DNA of 64,000 nt, from sequence record MN342150. The stretch is one strand, 5' to 3'. The notes below the pieces were generated by a model that saw only the letters and a program-made list of their open reading frames with translations, searched no databases and was not told where the DNA came from. Source of the DNA: Escherichia phage vB_EcoM_3HA11. Below, piece by piece: positions 2,825-56,190 of the stretch. The position numbers and the translations under genes are program-made. Position 1 is the stretch's first letter; every line of letters starts with the position of its first letter.

Positions 2825-4018
2825 ATGAAAGCCAAGACCTTCAGTATTCCTATCGACAACATTGGTCGTGTCAAGGAACGTCTGGCCAAACTTGAAAGAA
2901 CGGCCAAGCGCCTGAATCTCGAGTTCCCTCTTGTCGAATACAGCGAACCATACAAAACCCAGCATCGCGATTCTATCACTGGTGAAAAATTCTATCGGTG
3001 GTGGCAGGATTGTACACTCACTGGTGAAGGCATCGACCGCCCCGTTTCCTACGGCGGGTGGAGCATTATTGGACAATTCAATCACCAATATCCAAAAGTC
3101 ATCTTGAATAAATTAGCAGATGACATCCACCCTAATTTCATTCAAAGATTCGAAGCCGAAAACGTGTCTTGGTGTGAGCATTGTAATAAATCTGTGCGTC
3201 GTCATAACACATATGTTGTTCGTAACGAACAATCCGGCGCTCAAATGTTGGTCGGCAGTAGCTGTATGCACCATTACGTTCCTCATCAGAAATCGCTTGA
3301 TGCCGTGATGTCTTATTATATGTCGATACATGAAATGTTCTCACCTGATGAAGATGACCCTGAAGGCATCTATCGAGTGAACGAACCTGATTACGTTGAC
3401 ACTGAAGGTTATTTGCGGAATTGCTTTCAGGTTCTGCTGTCTGGTATGAGTATGAAGAGCGATGATTTTGGTCGAGTTCTTGGTCATATTTCTAGCGGGA
3501 CTCGTCCGGAGAAAGGTTCTGACATTGAGATATTCTATAACAAGGCTGTTAAAGCCCGTGAAGATGCTCAATCAGAAATGTACCATATGATGCTTTTCAT
3601 CGCCGCGTTGTCTGAGAACAATGATTTCAACGTTCGCCTGAAACGTATGTGTGAACCTGGATATCACCTCGTTAAGGACTCCACGACAGTTCGTTGGGGA
3701 GCAGCAAAGTATTATGATTATATCCACACCCCCCGCCAAATGCGTTCTGTATCAAATTGGGTGGGGGAAGTCGGTGAAATGTTAGAAGTGCAAGTCAAAT
3801 TCGAAGCAAGGATTTTCCTGCATTCATCTGATTATGGTGACACGTATCTGTATACTTTCAAAACCAAAGAAGGCAATACCATTACATGGAAGACTTCTTA
3901 TATGGAAACCGAATTCCTGGAAGGTGATATGATCATTCGTGGTCGCGTCAAAGAATTGACCGAATTCAAAGATGTTAAACAAACTCAGGTAACAAGGGCA
4001 AAACTGAGGAAATTATGA
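2825..4018 (+). CDS. hypothetical protein with Cys/His cluster (397 aa)
   Basis: Long ORF with CEHCNKS...SSCMHHY putative metal-binding cluster; occupies the position where T4 has primase gp61 but no TOPRIM or gp61-like N-terminal zinc ribbon recognised. Confidence 0.5.
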   Translation: MKAKTFSIPIDNIGRVKERLAKLERTAKRLNLEFPLVEYSEPYKTQHRDSITGEKFYRWWQDCTLTGEGIDRPVSYGGWSIIGQFNHQYPKVILNKLADDIHPNFIQRFEAENVSWCEHCNKSVRRHNTYVVRNEQSGAQMLVGSSCMHHYVPHQKSLDAVMSYYMSIHEMFSPDEDDPEGIYRVNEPDYVDTEGYLRNCFQVLLSGMSMKSDDFGRVLGHISSGTRPEKGSDIEIFYNKAVKAREDAQSEMYHMMLFIAALSENNDFNVRLKRMCEPGYHLVKDSTTVRWGAAKYYDYIHTPRQMRSVSNWVGEVGEMLEVQVKFEARIFLHSSDYGDTYLYTFKTKEGNTITWKTSYMETEFLEGDMIIRGRVKELTEFKDVKQTQVTRAKLRKL

Positions 4019-4130
4019 TTCTTTTACAATTTGTTTTGAAAGCATTTGCATTCGGTCTTATCGCATGCGGAGTGATCACAGCTATGCTGTTAATCATAGC
4101 CCTGATCATCCCCTTTAAGAGGAAACGCTG

Positions 4131-10668: not shown

Positions 10669-12057
10669 TCAGACCTTCTGGGCTTGTCCTTTCTCTATTG
10701 GCGTCGGAGTTGGTGTAGAAGCCACAGTTTGACCAGTCTGAGGCGGTAAGACCTTCTGGATCATACTATCTTTGGCAATCTCAGCGACGCATTGATAATC
10801 ATTTGTCAGGCGTGAAATCTTGTGGCGTATCTTTGTGACGATATAATGGCCTGTTGATAACTTACTTAACTCGGCAATGTTTTCATTAGATTTCGGGCGG
10901 TTCGACAAATCTTCAATATAATAAACCTGCCCAACATTCAGACGGTTATCCCCCACGACCAGCAAACGCATAACCGTTGACGCGAGGCTGAATTCTATAA
11001 CGCGTCGTGCGTAATCTATTTGTTCGGCACCATCCGGTTGCGCTTCAATGTACCTAACGTTCTCACGGTCGAATTGATCAGAGAACAAAGGGAACGGATC
11101 AAGGTGAGCAGTGCTGTCAAACCATTCTGAATAAATGCGTTGGGTCGCTGTCGTGGATTTTGTACTAAAGTCATACACGCGCTCGTTCACTGCCAAGATA
11201 TCCCGATAATTCGCCATGTACTGATCACGCGCCAGTTTCTTTTCAGCCTTGATGATCGTCCGCATAAAACGTTCGGAGTTGAAGTTATTGTCTTGCATCA
11301 ACGGGGCATCTTGAGGATCACGGAAGAATTTCTTTTCCGCGCTTGCCTCTTGTTTCTCTTCGGCAGTCATGGACTGATTGCCCTGGTTGAACAATGTCGT
11401 CATGCTCTTGAAGTGATAGCCTGTGAAGTCTTCATAGAAAACAAATGGCATAAACAATTCGTCGTATGCGCGGCTGGCCATATAATCGATGGAACGAAGT
11501 ACAGGCCAAAGAGGAGTTGCGAATCGTTCTTGCACGCCATACGACGGATCTATGTCTTCAAATTTGGTTCGAGAATTTAACTGCTCAAAAATCTTGGCCG
11601 CCATTTCTGAATAAGAACCGTTCAGACCGATAGACTTACGCAGCATGCTGTCACGGTACGCATCTGTTGTCACCAAGTGCAGCCAAAATGCTTTTTTAGA
11701 TGATGAATTGGATTCATCCGCAACTCTACCCACCCGACTCACGCGCAATGAGAGAGTAGTGTAATCAGAAGCCGCTGGTGATTTGAATGACACCACTACT
11801 TCTTCACCGCCAAGTATCGGCATTGTGTCCAATATATCCCAACCTTCTTTTATCAAGATATTGGCTGTCAGTGAAGGAGAAGCATTACCTTCCAAACCAA
11901 GATCTTGGTAGACGTTGAATTCTTGAAATAAAGAAGACAGGTCATATGGTCTTGGCGTACCACCTTCTGGAGTATGTGGTAGGATCGCCATATACTTCAA
12001 ATCAAATGTGGTGGACGGTGTTAAAATACCGTCTTGAGATTCTTTATTTTCGATCAT
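10669..12057 (-). CDS. putative baseplate/tail structural protein (462 aa)
   Basis: Operon context with neighbouring structural genes; 4-nt overlap with upstream gene; no specific motif. Confidence 0.35.
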   Translation of the reverse strand: MIENKESQDGILTPSTTFDLKYMAILPHTPEGGTPRPYDLSSLFQEFNVYQDLGLEGNASPSLTANILIKEGWDILDTMPILGGEEVVVSFKSPAASDYTTLSLRVSRVGRVADESNSSSKKAFWLHLVTTDAYRDSMLRKSIGLNGSYSEMAAKIFEQLNSRTKFEDIDPSYGVQERFATPLWPVLRSIDYMASRAYDELFMPFVFYEDFTGYHFKSMTTLFNQGNQSMTAEEKQEASAEKKFFRDPQDAPLMQDNNFNSERFMRTIIKAEKKLARDQYMANYRDILAVNERVYDFSTKSTTATQRIYSEWFDSTAHLDPFPLFSDQFDRENVRYIEAQPDGAEQIDYARRVIEFSLASTVMRLLVVGDNRLNVGQVYYIEDLSNRPKSNENIAELSKLSTGHYIVTKIRHKISRLTNDYQCVAEIAKDSMIQKVLPPQTGQTVASTPTPTPIEKGQAQKV

Positions 12058-52006: not shown

Positions 52007-52095
52007 TGGCGGAAGGTGAAGGATTCGAACCTTCGGGGGCTAAAAGCCCCACTCGATTAGCAGTCGAGTCCCTTAAACCTCTCGGGCAACCTTCC
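52007..52095 (-). tRNA. tRNA-Ser (anticodon GCU)
   Basis: Hand-folded cloverleaf: acceptor GGAAGGT/ACCTTCC, anticodon stem CTCGA/TCGAG with loop CTGCTAA, long variable arm, T-loop TTCGAAT, encoded CCA. Confidence 0.7.
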
Positions 52096-52099
52096 AATT

Positions 52100-52183
52100 T
52101 GGAGCGGGAGAACAGGATTCGAACCTGTCCAGTGATCGTCGCCGATGATCAGTCGGCTACTGGCCAACCCCTATGGCTCCCGC
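52100..52183 (-). tRNA. tRNA-like element (anticodon loop CTGATCA, possible GAU), non-canonical junctions
   Basis: Acceptor GCGGGAG/CTCCCGC and T-arm present, but one extra nucleotide between T-stem and acceptor, no clean D-stem, pyrimidine at position 37. Confidence 0.3.
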
Positions 52184-52544
52184 GAAATTAGGACGGGCTT
52201 CACACCCGATTGAGCATTTCATCTGCCCGTTTGAAGGGCGACCAGTGCCTTCTGGTCTGTACACAGCTGGCTGCAACGCTTACCGTGTTTGGTCTACCGC
52301 TACGTGCTGGGCCACGCTCGAGGACATCGGCCATCCTTCCTCAGCTAATCCACGCAGCGGCAGATTTGTATCAGAGTGTCCGGTGTAGCTTTCCGTGAGG
52401 TGCGCACTACTGTAGCCTCTACACTCTGAATTTGGTGGGCGTTACTATCGTCGTCTTCGGATTCCGTTCTGCTATTGGACAGAGGCTTGGAGCTTGTCGG
52501 TCGCATACTTCGTGCCTATTCACTTTCGTTCACACCCGTAATTC

Positions 52545-52619
52545 TGGCGGTGCCTCAAGGACTCGAACCTTGCTATCACGGATTAACAGTCCGCCGCTTC
52601 ACCATTTAGCTAAAGCACC
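52545..52619 (-). tRNA. tRNA-Asn (anticodon GUU)
   Basis: 75 nt; acceptor GGTGCTT/AGGCACC, anticodon stem GCGGA/TCCGT with loop CTGTTAA, T-arm CAAGG-TTCGAGT-CCTTG, encoded CCA. Confidence 0.65.
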
Positions 52620-52627
52620 TGAATATT

Positions 52628-52703
52628 TGGCATGCCCTCCAGGACTCGAACCTGGGTTGTACGGTTTTGGAGACCGACCTCATAGCCGCTAGATCAAGGG
52701 CAC
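52628..52703 (-). tRNA. tRNA-Trp (anticodon CCA), weak D-stem
   Basis: 76 nt; acceptor GTGCCCT/AGGGCAT, anticodon loop CTCCAAA, T-arm CCAGG-TTCGAGT-CCTGG, encoded CCA. Confidence 0.5.
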
Positions 52704-52717
52704 ACACCTTACAACGA

Positions 52718-52742
52718 ACTATACTGTATAAAGGTTATTGAA
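52718..52742 (-). promoter_or_regulatory. promoter-like motif TTCAATAA-N11-TATAGT (minus strand) upstream of tRNA-Trp
   Basis: The -10-like hexamer ends about 15 nt before the mature tRNA-Trp 5' end. Confidence 0.35.
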
Positions 52743-52771
52743 ACAAACCTTTATTTTATTCAACCATAATA

Positions 52772-52848
52772 TGGTGATCCTGGTTGGGTTTGAACCAACG
52801 ACCAATGAATTATGAGTTCACTGCTCTAACCGACTGAGCTACAGGACC
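52772..52848 (-). tRNA. tRNA-Met (anticodon CAU; initiator/elongator/Ile-lysidine not distinguished)
   Basis: 77 nt canonical cloverleaf: acceptor GGTCCTG/CAGGATC, D-arm GCTC-AGTCGGTTA-GAGC, anticodon stem GTGAA/TTCAT with loop CTCATAA, T-loop TTCAAAC, CCA. Confidence 0.75.
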
Positions 52849-53252
52849 TTTTGATTCTTCAAATTTCTCAACACGTGTGGGTTGGATTCTAACATCTTCT
52901 TCATGTTGTCCTCCTTACTTAACAATTGTAAATTCCACAGTGCGCAATTATATTTGTTCTCATCAATATGGTCTATTTCAAACCCTTCTGGAACTGGGCC
53001 ATTAAACGCCACCCAGACAAACCAGTGTAGATATTTCCTGAGATATACACCCAGATATTCCACTTTTATTTGCAAATAGCCAGTCCCGTTGTCCACTGCA
53101 GTCAAATACTTCTCTGGCAGTTTCTGTTCATATTCCCTAAACTGGTTCTTACGGAGTATAGTCAATTCAGGCTTCTTGACCTTTCCGTAGTTGCTGACAA
53201 ATACGCAGATTCCGAGTTTATCCAAACACAACTCTTTCCAAATCTCTTCCAT
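52839..53252 (-). CDS. HNH homing endonuclease
   Basis: 137 aa; HNH motif EIDHIDENKYNCALWNLQLL; adjacent to the tRNA array; 3' end overlaps tRNA-Met by about 10 nt. Confidence 0.6.
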   Translation of the reverse strand: MEEIWKELCLDKLGICVFVSNYGKVKKPELTILRKNQFREYEQKLPEKYLTAVDNGTGYLQIKVEYLGVYLRKYLHWFVWVAFNGPVPEGFEIDHIDENKYNCALWNLQLLSKEDNMKKMLESNPHVLRNLKNQKVL

Positions 53253-53259
53253 GCCAACT

Positions 53260-55600
53260 ATTCCCCGTTATTTGTGATGTGTCCAACCAAGGTCTCTCAA
53301 CCCTTTATCCCGTTTGTGCATGATCAGTTCATGCATGCCTGTTTGTGCGCCTCACGGCAACGCGCTTCTGTGGGTCTTTGGCTTGCACCGTAGCCTCACC
53401 ACAGGCGTTTATTTTTCCAGGGCTTTCCACTTGCAAGTCTTGACCATATAGGGATACGGGCTTGCAAGATCGGGTTGGACACAACTTTGATGGCTCTAGG
53501 ACTAAAGATCCCGCGTCACCCATAGACTTGGTTTATAAAATCTAGAGCCATCAAAGTTGCAACCAATGTCGCAACTCGCACTTCAGCGTCTTCGTCTCGC
53601 TTCAGCACTTGTCCTCTACGCTCGGACCAAACGAGGCTGGCCGACAGAAACATGACACCACTCATCACTAGAGCGAGGATGTGGTTGATAGCCACGATGT
53701 TACATCTCTGTCGCAGAGTGATCACACTTGTCAGGATGATCACTGTTTTGCGAACTTGAAAATACTGCGCCTGTCTCGGGTTTCCCCTTAGTTCGGCCTC
53801 TCATTGTTCGTCTAGTCAGGGAGCTACCCTTGATGACCAGCTTATTTTGAGATCTTCGCCAGCACCCACTAGTGTCTAGAATATGTAGGTGTCGAGGTCC
53901 GCAAGGCATTGCCCTATTTCATACAACGCTCTCTCAAGTACGCAAATCGAAGTTCTCTGGGCTTAACAGGTTCGACCCAACATGTTGTATATCGCCTAAC
54001 TTACTCATGGGACGGCCACTTCTGTGTACAGACCTTGAGGGTTAAAAGATATACCCAAAGAACTTCGATTTGCGTTGTGGGGCAAACCCCCACACGGCTA
54101 CTTCTTTGACAGGGATTGCTAGCCCTGGGGATTCCACTGTTTAAGGCTTTATCCCATAACGCCCGAGGCGCGTTTTAACTTATTGAAGCTTGCATAACTG
54201 CAAACTGATGCGCTGTGAGACACATCTTTGAGGGCACTCAGTGTACAACAGGCTCCGATATTTCATAGGGCATTACTGCCTCGGATTTAAGTTGCCTTTC
54301 TCCTGAAACTCCATACAGTCTCGCGTCTGACGCGGAATGCCCTCAAAGATATGGAGCCGTTTTAGGGAGTCGAACCCAAATGCTTGGCCAGCGCTGACCT
54401 TACATCCCATCTGACTTAGGCAACCCACCTCTGCTTACTCAGGAGCTTATCCCCTTTGGACAGTCAGATATAACGGCTTTGGGATTGGAGGAAGGACTCG
54501 AACCTTCTCATGTACGCTCCTGATTTCTCAGAAGTAGTCTGCTCCCATCGACCTATTAAGTACACGCTCCGCTCATTGTTCGGCGGGAGCTTATTAATCA
54601 CACCCTCCCGCCTATTGTTAGTGCGCCGAATTTTGTTATGAGGAATCGGAAGACCTCACTGGTGTATGGCTATTAAGCTACTGCCAGGAACGTGTTATCA
54701 TTAGCGATTATTTTTGTGGTCAGTTTCTAAAAACCCGCAAAGTCACGCACAACGAAAACGAAAACCTGTTTGAGTCCTAAACCTACCTGTCTTGGTCTCA
54801 CATCGCTATGAGTGGCCAGGACTCAAACAGCTTGCCGTTCAGTGAGTTAACTATACTTTGTAACCCGTTATTGATAAAACCTTTTATTTTTGTTGACGAG
54901 GGTGTGGAATCGAACCACACTTCTGAGCGCTGCCCCGTGTCACCAATGCACCACCTCACCATCGATTTGCCGGAACTTACGCATCCGGCCTCGTCCTGTC
55001 GGTGTTCTTCTGAATCCGGGAAGATCAGCAGGAACTATGAATCAAGTTAATTCAACCAACAGGAATCCTCGTGTTGCCCTTTGACGCAACATTATGAACC
55101 CTCTATGAAGACTCATAATGTTGTCGGCGTGATGGAGATTAGCGCCCCCGACCTCCCCTTATATGTTGGTGTCGACTTGCCAACAGGGTGCTCTCTGATT
55201 CTGAGCTAATCACGCTACAACAGGGAGTTTCGTTCTCCGACGGTCAAGTGCGTCCACTGACACCAGCGAGGTGGATATTATGCCTCTATTCACACAAGCC
55301 CCAGAGACTAGGGGTTCACTGTTTTCGGTTTCAAGCCTACTCACACTGTGCTGTTTCCCTCATGTTTGATACTTTACTGCAAGCCAGCCAATTTGAAAAA
55401 TCCTCTCCCCTTTGAATTACACTGCCCACAGCAGTGCGGACGAACCTTCATTCAAAACCGGATGCGCCGAAATGGGCGACTGTGTACCGGACTGATCAGG
55501 TCGACCCAGGAGAGAGCAGGTAATCCCGATCAGGAGGATGAGGAGTAACATCATGTAAAACATAGTGTTCCCTCCCTTCCATGCAACTAACTTTACCGCA
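53260..55600. other. ORF-poor structured region with tRNA-like fragments and long-range inverted repeats (candidate ncRNA, intron or pseudo-tRNA remnants)
   Basis: No credible ORF of 60 aa or more; T-arm-like motifs at about 54366, 54496 and 54910 with acceptor-like pairings at non-tRNA spacing; inverted repeats such as 53483-53500/53551-53568, 53943-53957/54060-54074 and 54225-54234/54341-54350. Confidence 0.4.
55414..55560 (-). CDS. small hydrophobic peptide (about 48 aa; below ORF-track cutoff)
   Basis: ATG preceded by strong GGAAGGGAGGGA RBS; MFYMMLLLILLIGITC signal-like N-terminus; coordinates hand-counted. Confidence 0.3.
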
Positions 55601-55613
55601 TTTATTTATTGAA
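55590..55613 (-). promoter_or_regulatory. promoter-like motif TTCAATAA-N10-TAAAGT (minus strand, weak -10)
   Basis: Upstream of the small peptide gene 55414..55560. Confidence 0.25.
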
Positions 55614-55620
55614 TAAAGCG

Positions 55621-56190
55621 TTATTTTATCAATTCTAACTTCACAACGCGGCGCAGAAGATAAACATATTCACCAGACGCTTCATGCGACATATAATGTG
55701 TAGAAGGGGTGGAATGGTTGTTCTGGGTTTCTTTTAACCCAACGCGTTCAGCCCAACCATTAATGGAGTTCCCGTAAAACCCGATAATCGCGCCGAAATA
55801 AATGCGCTGGCTCTCTGGTTCTAAAATATAGTTGACAGTGAAGCAGATGTCAGAACGAATAGATTCTAATTTTATACCAACCCGACCTTCAGAGAATTCG
55901 TTGCGAACATACAAATGACGAAAACGATCGCGTCGCGCTTGTGATGACTCTTCCAATTCTTGGCGAAGTGAGGATGTTGCATCGATATTAAATGAAAATG
56001 TCGGGTTTTGCAAATCGGTACGGGCTAACTCTAATGCTGATTCAACAACACGGCGGAAATTAATATTTTTGCCAGTCAGACGTTTCACTTCTTCTGTAAT
56101 TGTTCCGAAAGGAATTTTTGTAGCACGTTCCCCTTCGTATTTTGCTAACAAAGGGATGATGTGTTTCATTATTGCTGTATTAATGTGCAT
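55621..56190 (-). CDS. hypothetical protein (189 aa)
   Basis: Isolated minus-strand ORF between the ncRNA-like region and the plus-strand structural operon. Confidence 0.4.
   Translation of the reverse strand: MHINTAIMKHIIPLLAKYEGERATKIPFGTITEEVKRLTGKNINFRRVVESALELARTDLQNPTFSFNIDATSSLRQELEESSQARRDRFRHLYVRNEFSEGRVGIKLESIRSDICFTVNYILEPESQRIYFGAIIGFYGNSINGWAERVGLKETQNNHSTPSTHYMSHEASGEYVYLLRRVVKLELIK

Follow-up and report, generated by a model that had tools for sequence, protein, structure and literature searches.

In the 64,000-nucleotide (nt) stretch of Escherichia phage vB_EcoM_3HA11 DNA analysed here (sequence record MN342150; referred to as the window), positions 53253–55416 very probably form a conserved minus-strand island of functional genes for structured RNAs, which continues the tRNA cluster. 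The island is non-coding, conserved and modular, and covarying structures on one strand run through it; one of its parts is homologous to the tag-encoding region of ssrA, the gene of transfer-messenger RNA (tmRNA). A first-pass annotation, made from the letters of the sequence alone, had listed a structured non-coding RNA among the possible explanations of this region. That was right but understated, as there are many units, at least two of them from families that reach far beyond the Ackermannviridae. The island appears to be built of cassettes, each a closed and independently folding RNA, that have been gained and lost among relatives. Their kinds are multi-helix domains, the tRNA-like units M2 and M4 together with a decayed one, M1, a structured RNA that we call Family 1, and a tmRNA-derived pair consisting of a body and the tRNA-like unit M3. 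The pair represents a new arrangement of a known RNA, Family 1 is uncatalogued, and the island units lie outside the T4 stable-RNA, GOLLD and ROOL families. Our confidence in a specific molecular function for any of these RNAs is low. All genes and RNA features of the window named below are on the minus strand.

The non-coding part is bounded by comparison with relatives. By megablast, the window belongs to the genus Kuttervirus (Ackermannviridae, Vi01/CBA120-like), with Salmonella phage vB_SenM_UTK0005 as the closest match (99.7%). Only short open reading frames (ORFs), all of 80 amino acids (aa) or fewer, are listed for 53260–55600. None of the internal ORFs of the island is intact across the genera compared, and a Pfam search of them gave no match at threshold; a 64-aa ORF over 53329–53523, for instance, is broken by three stops in phage CBA120 despite highly conserved DNA. 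The curated CBA120 RefSeq record leaves the homologous 2.2 kb without annotation, and automatic annotations place "hypothetical proteins" of 30–80 aa there on both strands. The earlier statement that 53260–55600 has no credible ORF therefore stands for 53253–55416, where there is neither a conserved ORF nor a Pfam match, and falls for 55417–55563, which is a real gene and is excluded from the island.

The region was found in 317 phage records, all of Ackermannviridae size, and is present in ~270 Ackermannviridae genomes; its carriers are phages of Salmonella, Escherichia, Klebsiella, Shigella, Dickeya, Serratia and Enterobacter. Five genera were compared, represented by Menlow (Taipeivirus), MK-13 (Agtrevirus), Ds9CZ (Limestonevirus), 3M (Miltonvirus) and CBA120, and their alignment revealed conserved blocks separated by sharp breakpoints. 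Block A (53269–53581) occurs in all five genera and is 93% identical to Dickeya and Shigella phages, above the adjacent protein gene, which reaches 69–79% in the same comparison. A per-base profile over eight lineage groups contains long runs that are identical in all of them. Cassettes are lost or gained with exact ends, as indels of 75, 102 and 214 nt (54890–54964, 54478–54579 and 54366–54579, respectively); the 214-nt segment is absent from Menlow and the 75-nt one from both Menlow and MK-13. Mosaic breakpoints lie at 54075/54077 and 54221/54243, and the Dickeya phages retain only ~1 kb of the island. By BLAST, blocks B (53582–54353) and F (54965–55416) are restricted to Ackermannviridae, bar one 214-nt match in a 68-kb Klebsiella phage.

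This mosaic bears on the possibility that all 2.15 kb constitute one giant structured RNA, a single molecule of the GOLLD or ROOL kind. Conservation and structure are indeed continuous, convincing internal terminators are lacking, the units abut with 0–3 nt between them, and GOLLD and ROOL are themselves large, phage-associated and often next to tRNAs (PMC5737381). However, the modules come and go independently, down to the ~1 kb of the Dickeya phages, and both Family 1 and the tmRNA-like body stand alone in other phages, where they are flanked by tRNAs, terminators or ORFs. Two units also have an encoded CCA like processed tRNAs, and there is no Rfam match to GOLLD or ROOL. We therefore regard a single large molecule as unlikely, and favor an island of separate RNA genes.

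The three inverted repeats reported earlier are real, although the second arm of the first had been misplaced by 9 nt: the arms pair 53482–53499 with 53542–53559, 53940–53961 with 54054–54075, and 54221–54239 with 54335–54353. Alignment with related phages, which had been proposed as a check, revealed that all three are kept as stems in other genera with compensatory changes. Could they act instead at the DNA level, as an origin, a packaging or recombination site, or protein-binding palindromes? The repeats are long and perfect and lie in an ORF-free region, and the GC skew changes sign ~0.3–0.8 kb away, near 55600–56000, where gene orientation flips too. On the other hand, G.U pairs are tolerated on one strand only, as exemplified by an invariant G.U in the tmRNA-like body and by several G.U/U.G pairs in the stems of Family 1 and of 53940–54075; the loops, not the stems, are most conserved; and CCA ends, a tag frame with synonymous changes, and pseudoknots are features of RNA. 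A DNA-level role is highly improbable on these grounds. The strand of the RNAs is taken as minus because all tRNA-like 3′ ends and CCAs are on that strand, because the G.U pair mentioned above is invariant, and because a prophage homologue described below lies on the strand of its Q and holin genes.

The same covariation largely refutes the view of the region as a tRNA graveyard, made up of decayed genes that turnover of the tRNA array has left without present function. M1 fits such a view, being tRNA-sized with a good T-arm, no anticodon stem and a broken acceptor pairing; tRNA-sized cassettes are gained and lost, and a pseudo "tRNA-Ala" or "tRNA-OTHER" is annotated at this place in several records. 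Yet most of the 2.15 kb is conserved at least as well as the neighbouring protein genes across five genera, the stems are held by compensatory substitutions, two modules belong to families of unrelated phages, and only ~75 nt look like a pseudogene. A graveyard is thus very unlikely. The decayed tRNA genes suggested by the first-pass annotation survive as a description of M1 (75 nt, acceptor pairing lost among close relatives) and do not fit M2 and M4, the stems of which are kept by compensatory changes.

Standard models are nearly silent on all this. Rfam 15, at gathering scores and at E ≤ 10, was run on the window, 12 other Family 1 loci, one typical Family 1 member and the prophage locus, and found only tRNAs and weak tmRNA-type matches; in the island region there was nothing at E ≤ 10 besides the latter. 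Rfam RF00005 and ARAGORN at default call tRNAs only within 52007–52848. The silence of Rfam and default ARAGORN coexists with strong conservation and covariation, and the lack of Rfam or tRNA-model hits, proposed earlier as a ground for refuting the idea of structured RNA here, would have wrongly dismissed the region.

The tmRNA-derived body (54582–54831) was defined by alignment to ssrA, by its tag frame and by covariation. From 5′ to 3′ it consists of a covarying hairpin, P0 (54765–54831); a region whose counterparts in tmRNA, by homology, are the D-loop analogue and P2b (54706–54766); the tag frame (54670–54705); a helix-5-like hairpin with the stops in its loop (54659–54687); a PK2-like pseudoknot (54626–54658); and a PK3-like pseudoknot (54582–54625). 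The minus strand reads ...ACAAAAAUAAUC and continues into the frame GCU AAU GAU AAC ACG UUC CUG GCA GUA GCU UAA UAG, encoding ANDNTFLAVA followed by two stops, with the resume context AUAAUC immediately before GCU. As in tmRNA, this context is A-rich and has U-5 and A-4, the ten-codon tag begins with A-N-D like that of enterobacterial SsrA (ANDENYALAA), and two H-type pseudoknots follow the stops. The tag region, from the A-rich resume context through the tag codons to the stops, aligns without gaps to positions 80–127 of E. coli ssrA (48 nt, 67% identity). All of the ~100 distinct homologues have exactly ten codons of the form A-N-[DE]-[DENS]-x-[FYV]-L-[AMI]-[VA]-A and then one or two stops; third codon positions vary synonymously among them, and U-5 and A-4 are retained.

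The structure is equally well preserved. Counts over 34 diverse sequences gave 97.1% paired cells, compared with 33–45% in slid controls, and 10 of the 24 pairs showed compensatory changes. Every stem of the body has at least one covarying pair, all four stems of the two pseudoknots 3′ of the tag carry compensatory changes, and the helix-5-like hairpin switches from G-C to A-U in 16 of the 34 sequences. One G.U pair in PK3 is invariant in 34/34, which fixes the strand. An equivalent of PK1 was sought 5′ of the tag, and none was definable. At the Rfam gathering threshold there is no tmRNA in the window (RF00023, RF04321); the best scores below it are 20.6 bits for tmRNA_permuted (gathering 47) and 14.6 bits for beta_tmRNA (gathering 84). 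ARAGORN reports no tmRNA in the window at its default or at 95%, and recovers one with the tag ANDNTFLAVA and its two stops only at the 85% threshold, where it uses the M3 stretch as the 3′ tRNA domain.

Two ways of closing the body into a conventional molecule were rejected. For a one-piece tmRNA, ARAGORN takes the 5′ domain from M1; this distal partner varies among close relatives and disappears where M1 is absent, and M1 and M3 do not co-occur. The segment GCUGUUU (54825–54831) is complementary to the M2 3′ strand at 7/7 positions in all Ackermannviridae, but it forms the base of the covarying P0, and the genuine compensatory change is seen in the local partner.

Homologues of the body extend well outside the Ackermannviridae. 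Distant BLAST matches cover a segment of 100–140 nt (54619–54759) in unrelated phages and in 137 E. coli chromosomes; the element, unannotated, is carried by 137 of the 5,426 complete E. coli genomes. A pattern scan found at least 120 IMG/VR contigs among the matches listed, which include Felixounavirus (86–90 kb), T1/Webervirus-like (40–50 kb), T5-like (111 kb) and 68–72-kb phages. In phage wV8 the segment is located inside a tRNA array next to an HNH gene. In E. coli 55989 the homologue belongs to a lambdoid prophage, in which it is placed between the antiterminator gene Q and the holin gene and shares their strand (NC_011748, 2691330–2691720); there, ARAGORN calls a standard one-piece tmRNA at 95%, not at default, with the tag ANDDVVLMAA and two stops. 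This prophage element has the appearance of a near-complete, divergent second tmRNA-like gene. It is interrupted or flanked by repeated hairpin modules of ~100 nt (ACAACAGGUAAGAGCA...UGCUCUUAUCGUUGUGG), the 3′ end of which is a possible acceptor 5′ strand, and these modules are also found in T1-like Klebsiella phages. In MK-13, the 3′ half of PK3 and the next 30 nt are tandemly duplicated (GGGUGUGAUUAAUAAGCUCCCGCCGACUAAAAUCUGUUUGGG twice; stretch L006, ~3880–4076), and an unrelated structured insert of ~190 nt takes the place of M3.

M3 (54480–54548) is a 69-nt RNA that resembles the tRNA-like domain (TLD) of tmRNA on its own, as judged from its sequence, T-arm and CCA, and it sits in the 102-nt cassette 54478–54579, which is missing from some relatives. 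Its acceptor is AUGGGAG/CUCCAAU, its T-arm GAAGG-UUCGAGU-CCUUC and its discriminator C, followed by CCA; a 7-bp helix with a GAAA tetraloop replaces the anticodon/P2 arm. The 3′ half of this domain (T-arm, acceptor strand, C and CCA) occupies 54480–54507, and its only conserved 5′ partner is the local AUGGGAG, 41 nt upstream. Body and M3 each look like a part of tmRNA, but they stand as two tandem units, the body first and a self-contained tRNA-like domain second, an order that corresponds neither to the standard tmRNA gene nor to the known permuted form (PMC11915505). In one Felixounavirus subgroup, an 81-nt unit with G3.U70, A73 and CCA has a 3′ end of 28 nt that is 79% identical to the 3′ end of ssrA. 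In wV8 this unit (stretch L003, 2132–2212) stands directly after the tag body, in a tRNA array of the Felix O1 type with an HNH gene adjacent, and is annotated as a pseudo "tRNA-OTHER"; by its sequence it looks more like a TLD-only tmRNA fragment than a tRNA pseudogene.

These features set the phage elements apart from classical tmRNA in several respects. The tRNA-like part is self-contained and downstream of the coding part instead of enclosing it, and many homologues have no such part at all; the phage tags end in LAVA or LMAA, not in ALAA; position 3:70 in the window is G.A; and the window element scores below the Rfam gathering and default ARAGORN thresholds. Phage ssrA genes were earlier reported only for Bxz1-like mycobacteriophages, Bacillus phage G and mycobacteriophage DS6A, the last of which encodes a TLD-only RNA; RNAs of this type inhibit tmRNA, perhaps through titration of SmpB (PMC4131195; PMC11915505). 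M3 and the wV8 unit both look like the DS6A RNA. A 2025 database contains 79 phage tmRNA sequences (PMC11915505).

The second widespread module, Family 1, is a 204-nt structured RNA at 53279–53482, delimited by a covariance model (R1), alignment and RNAalifold. A 10-bp closing helix, P1, pairs 53473–53482 with 53279–53288 and encloses a hairpin, P2, with a conserved 25-nt loop (GCCCGUAUCCCUAUAUGGUCAAGAC, 53437–53461), a short helix, P3, a GNRA-capped hairpin, a GCAUGA/UCAUGC hairpin and a terminal hairpin. The window copy has the defining succession of the family: the P2 loop GCCCGWAUCCCnnUnUGGUYAAGAC, J-P3, the GNRA hairpin, CAAAC-P3′ and the terminal hairpin. The minus-strand alignment of block A exhibits invariant single-stranded runs together with compensatory changes. 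For the Ackermannviridae form, RNAalifold predicted 48 pairs from 23 sequences, 21 of them compensatory, and P1, P2, P3 and the GNRA and terminal hairpins are all paired in 22 Ackermannviridae sequences. R1 matches the window at 53412–53475, over P2 (E = 1.3e-7), its sole copy in the 64 kb; the middle of the window RNA is too diverged for a global model alignment, and the remaining elements were placed by alignment to a homologue in Klebsiella phage KP13-26 and to typical members.

KP13-26 (Stephanstirmvirinae) gave the one partial BLAST match outside the Ackermannviridae. A 217-nt gap between its tRNA-Asn and tRNA-Thr holds the Family 1 architecture, with a P1 that is fully different in sequence yet complementary. 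A pattern scan with the P2 loop motif GCCCGWATCCCNNTNTGGTYAAGAC found 61 IMG/VR contigs, 40 of them non-Ackermannviridae and 13–358 kb long, and 108 metagenome contigs; in 100,044 species-representative bacterial and archaeal genomes it gave 3 matches only, all in metagenome-assembled genomes. R1, built from 17 short members, matches 100 of 100 loci with 27–134 bits. In its seed, a plain MAFFT alignment, the paired share of cells is 88.6% (62% in shuffles), 19 of the 21 pairs are compensatory, and none of 500 shuffles reaches the observed value. The alignment of 89 distinct sequences, which was fitted with the model and is biased towards its structure, agrees in direction with the seed: 96% of cells are paired (60% in shuffles, 25–40% in slid controls), and 20/21 pairs are compensatory, with up to six pair types per position. 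Family 1, with members of ~135–230 nt in ~150 viral and metagenome contigs overall, is thus a widespread phage RNA family that is uncatalogued in Rfam 15, where the window copy, the 12 other loci and one typical member have no match.

The neighbourhood of Family 1 points to tRNAs, as its members are usually located within a tRNA array or next to one. At 27 of the 41 non-Ackermannviridae loci sampled (the 40 IMG/VR contigs and KP13-26), tRNAs lie within 4 kb and always on the same strand; at 12 loci or more, no more than ~10 nt separate the 3′ end of a tRNA from the start of Family 1, and at several a tRNA comes straight after it. Other copies have an intrinsic terminator or unrelated ORFs behind them. 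The idea of a cis-regulatory leader was rejected in view of the unrelated downstream genes and of the copies followed by terminators or tRNAs. A search for a protein partner, by clustering the ORFs within 3 kb of 92 distinct Family 1 loci, gave no family at more than 4 loci. Our best guess is that Family 1 acts in trans, with a link to tRNA metabolism or processing, and is not a cis regulator.

Some single loci have neighbours of their own. In KP13-26 and a related IMG/VR contig, a 476-aa ORF beginning MSKLFDSSKTK...ARDVRGGMGERE lies in the tRNA array, ~1.5–3 kb upstream of Family 1. It resembles a Ro60/TROVE protein, and if it is one, Y-RNA-like partners may share the array; such an ORF is not a general companion of the family. 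A QueC-like ORF (MSKAYVLLSGGIDSTTCLA...) is found ~0.9–1.0 kb downstream of Family 1 at three metagenome loci and a ThyX-like ORF downstream at one, in both cases too few for an association.

By eye, typical Family 1 members recall the P4 region of RNase P RNA. AAUAG-U-CCGG pairs with CAAAC-CCGG-C, forming a 4-bp helix next to a bulged U and a G-C pair, with A-rich flanks and a hairpin ahead, reminiscent of J3/4-P4-J2/4 (GGAAAG-U-CCGG / ACAGAA-CCCGGC). The Ackermannviridae form has GUGGAAAGCCC at the P4-like junction (53414–53430 and ~53300–53315; compare GAGGAAAGUCC), and typical members have a GUGGAAAGC motif in the loop of the terminal hairpin. Unlike RNase P RNA, however, Family 1 is devoid of equivalents of P1, P2, P15 and P18 and of a specificity domain. 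An identity with RNase P RNA was rejected: no RNase P model matches at E ≤ 10, and the helix sequence covaries freely, so that the likeness may be due to chance.

GOLLD and ROOL offer another comparison. Like them, Family 1 is phage-borne, often adjacent to tRNAs on the same strand, and folded into a complex multi-helix structure (PMC5737381). It differs in size (~135–230 nt versus 600–800 nt) and in being almost confined to virulent-phage-sized contigs, and the GOLLD and ROOL models (RF01998 and RF03087) match neither the window nor the 12 other Family 1 loci at gathering or E ≤ 10. A catalogue of 10,006 viral structured-RNA candidates may hold the motifs described here unnamed (PMC10690425).

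The tRNA-like units account for the T-arm motifs reported earlier. Three are present, each with an acceptor-like 3′ strand after it and two with an encoded CCA: UUGGG-UUCGACU-CCCUA at 54363–54379, GAAGG-UUCGAGU-CCUUC at 54491–54507, and GUGUGG-UUCGAUU-CCACAC at ~54902–54920. Their units measure 126, 69 and 75 nt, and the odd spacing for canonical tRNAs was correctly perceived. M2 (54352–54477; 126 nt), recognized by its sequence and compensatory stems, has the acceptor GCCGUUA/AAACGGC, an internal hairpin UCUGACU/AGUCAGA, the first of these T-arms, discriminator U and CCA; MK-13 shows compensatory GCCGCUA/AAGCGGC in the acceptor and CCUGAU/AUCAGG in the internal hairpin. M1 (54890–54964; 75 nt) has a well-formed T-arm but neither an anticodon stem nor CCA, substitutions among close relatives disrupt its acceptor pair, and some records annotate it as "tRNA-Ala"; it is probably a decayed tRNA gene. 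ARAGORN calls M1 and M2 tRNAs only at an 80% threshold. M4 (55126–55215) has the acceptor GCGUGAU/AUCACGC and the D-arm GCUC/GAGC, replaced in Taipeivirus by the compensatory GUGUGAU/AUCACAC and GCGG/CCGC. It has no T-loop and no CCA, and an anticodon-like stem, likewise maintained by compensatory change, bears a 10-nt loop, CAAGUCGACA. M2, M3 and M4 are without an anticodon arm.

These units could also be thought of as intron-containing or split tRNA genes, with exons joined by splicing or trans-assembly, an explanation raised by the first-pass annotation. The T-arms and acceptor-like ends 70–126 nt apart and the adjacent HNH homing endonuclease gene would suit it, and the intron mode of ARAGORN yields two candidates at a 90% threshold. 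These candidates, however, arise at lowered thresholds only, require implausible introns of 403 and 460 nt (400–460 nt) and join unrelated modules. Group I and group II intron models of Rfam have no match even at E ≤ 10 on either strand of 52800–55800. In M2, M3 and M4 there is no anticodon stem-loop for splicing to restore, and the HNH gene is free-standing and absent where tRNA-Met directly follows Family 1. Intron-containing or split tRNA genes are therefore extremely unlikely.

How might such an island be expressed? It would be co-transcribed with the tRNAs, possibly with the help of internal promoters such as a sigma-70-like match, TTATCA-16-TATAGT, at 54850–54877; this came from a consensus scan, which is not evidence of function. 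The site is conserved in Dickeya and Serratia phages, and better-matching promoters are seen by eye at the equivalent position in wV8, BUCT610 and a T5-like contig. In promoter-like sequences of three unrelated phages, also examined by eye, the RNA would begin at the conserved AGUUUUCG, which is homologous to the D-loop analogue of tmRNA, and no acceptor strand would precede it. The transcript would then be cut to stable small RNAs by the tRNA-processing enzymes of the host, RNase P acting at the 5′ ends of the tRNA-like units and 3′ trimming proceeding to the CCA.

Phage T4 provides a precedent. Its species 1 and species 2 RNAs (rnaC and rnaD) share a transcript with the tRNAs, from which tRNA processing sets them free. 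They are small stable RNAs encoded directly downstream of the T4 tRNA cluster on the same strand, with a homing endonuclease gene inside the cluster, a layout that resembles that of the island; T4 rnaD ends in CCA and T4 rnaC has a T-arm. The resemblance does not extend to homology: a comparison of rnaC and rnaD with M1–M4, Family 1 and the IR3 domain (the closed domain of the third inverted repeat) found no significant similarity (shuffle p ~0.06–0.9), and R1 has no match in the T4 region.

The tmRNA-like RNAs may act on trans-translation in the host. They could provide extra ribosome-rescue capacity with a phage-specified tag, or they could be mimics that titrate SmpB and the ribosome. The second option is raised by the fact that most homologues of the body have no linked tRNA-like domain.

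Several points weigh against the island as interpreted here. Expression, transcript ends, processing and stability are analytical deductions from sequence; we infer the first three from the strand shared with the tRNAs, the units abutting by 0–12 nt, the encoded CCA ends and the T4 precedent. Promoter and terminator scans were at background (9 found versus 6.5 expected, and 7 versus 4.6). The body has no conserved 5′ acceptor strand. The unit after it varies, being in other phages an unrelated tRNA-like unit or an ordinary tRNA, in a 68-kb phage an intrinsic terminator, and in Menlow nothing. The alanine identity pair G3.U70 is replaced in M3 by G3.A70, which is invariant in 8 Kuttervirus sequences. 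With no 5′ acceptor strand, a variable or missing tRNA-like unit and G3.A70, a canonical role in trans-translation is not established. M3 and the IR3 domain are almost invariant, and their folds rest mainly on thermodynamics and a few substitutions. The bias of the model-fitted R1 alignment belongs here as well.

A bolder reading is possible, albeit doubtful. At least four unrelated lineages of enterobacterial virulent phages (Vi01-, FelixO1-, T1- and T5-like) would carry a split, rearranged tmRNA, with the coding and pseudoknot body on one RNA that has no tRNA-like domain and, in some phages, that domain by itself on a separate mini-RNA. Acting jointly or singly, these RNAs would reprogram or shut down ribosome rescue in the infected host, as a third tmRNA gene topology and a new class of anti-host RNA mimic, and in phage tRNA arrays Family 1 would be a new RNA that acts in trans. 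If the main interpretation, that of an island of RNA genes, is right, tmRNA-derived genes would be common in the best-studied coliphage groups and yet missed by standard detectors, and phage manipulation of trans-translation would become directly testable through the tag ...ANDNTFLAVA and through SmpB titration. Family 1 would then offer structural and functional work a new RNA family with strong covariation and, with GOLLD and ROOL, would support the view of phage tRNA clusters as hot spots of large functional RNAs, and the puzzle of the T4 species 1 and 2 RNAs would gain a much larger comparative context. On the practical side, ~270 sequenced Ackermannviridae, many of them proposed for phage therapy or food biocontrol, carry ~2 kb that is left blank or given spurious ORFs. 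In the literature searched on non-coding RNA, transcriptomes and tmRNA of Ackermannviridae, Kuttervirus and CBA120 nothing relevant was found, the region is not discussed, and no RNA-seq study of an Ackermannviridae phage turned up; a 2024 review of the family mentions neither tRNAs nor non-coding regions.

The other modules of the island are multi-helix domains. A long hairpin 5′ of Family 1 (53482–53559), formed by the first inverted repeat, is followed upstream by a small hairpin to ~53590. It is kept in Taipeivirus and Agtrevirus, with 6/13 pairs compensatory. In Serratia phages (Miltonvirus) its site holds instead an unannotated tRNA-like 3′ end, GGAGG-UUCGAAU-CCUCA CUCGGGU G CCA, 5 nt before P1. 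Block B is a chain of closed domains. It comprises a series of hairpins, block B1 (53582–53939), delineated by the conservation profile, alignment and RNAalifold, in which 53607–53641 is identical in 7/8 lineage groups; a closed domain of the second inverted repeat (53940–54075) with a long-range stem of 21–22 bp, in which 10 of 31 pairs are compensatory, for example UCGAAGUU/AACUUCGA to GUAGAGUC/AACUCUAC in MK-13; a hairpin module (54076–54220), identified by the mosaic breakpoints, that is replaced or deleted in some relatives; and the multi-branch IR3 domain (54221–54353), closed by the 19-bp stem of the third inverted repeat. The IR3 domain begins right after the CCA of M2, is almost invariant in sequence, and has 3 compensatory pairs among 43.

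Block F was analysed in an alignment of 10 genomes. Besides M4, it contains a 13-bp hairpin (55083–55125), a long-range stem (55055–55063/54995–55003) and a hairpin at 54969–54989. The single match of this block outside the Ackermannviridae is in Klebsiella phage GKM-TASP92 (PV588653, 68 kb), the positions 11346–11558 of which are 84% identical to 55199–55412 of the window. It corresponds to the structured stretch between the membrane-protein gene and M4, and hints at module travel between phage families.

The first-pass annotation had correctly placed an HNH endonuclease gene at the border of the island (52839–53252; HNH_3 domain, Pfam E = 1e-15); on the other side, beyond the small gene at 55417–55563, lies a conserved gene for a 189-aa protein (55621–56190). 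The HNH gene is an insertion that separates Family 1 from tRNA-Met, and several Kuttervirus relatives have no copy. In the latter, tRNA-Met (GGUCCUGUAGCUC...) begins ~12 nt past the 3′ strand of P1 of Family 1, which indicates that the endonuclease landed exactly at a junction of two RNA genes. The gene at 55417–55563 encodes 48 aa with one predicted transmembrane helix and has no Pfam family. It has a strong Shine-Dalgarno sequence, GGGAGG, 7 nt ahead of its ATG and a conserved hydrophobic N-terminus, corresponds to orf219 of CBA120, and is intact in CBA120, MK-13 and one further relative, with the N-terminal part conserved in Menlow.

ARAGORN finds five tRNA genes in the neighbouring cluster (Ser, Ile, Asn, Trp and Met; 52007–52848). 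The 84-nt "tRNA-Ile(gat)" (52100–52183) is called by ARAGORN only, the Rfam tRNA model recovering 4/5 tRNAs at gathering score, and it is labelled "tRNA-OTHER" or Tyr in other records. Between it and tRNA-Asn, a 360-nt gap (52184–52544) contains only tiny annotated ORFs and might hold further RNA modules.

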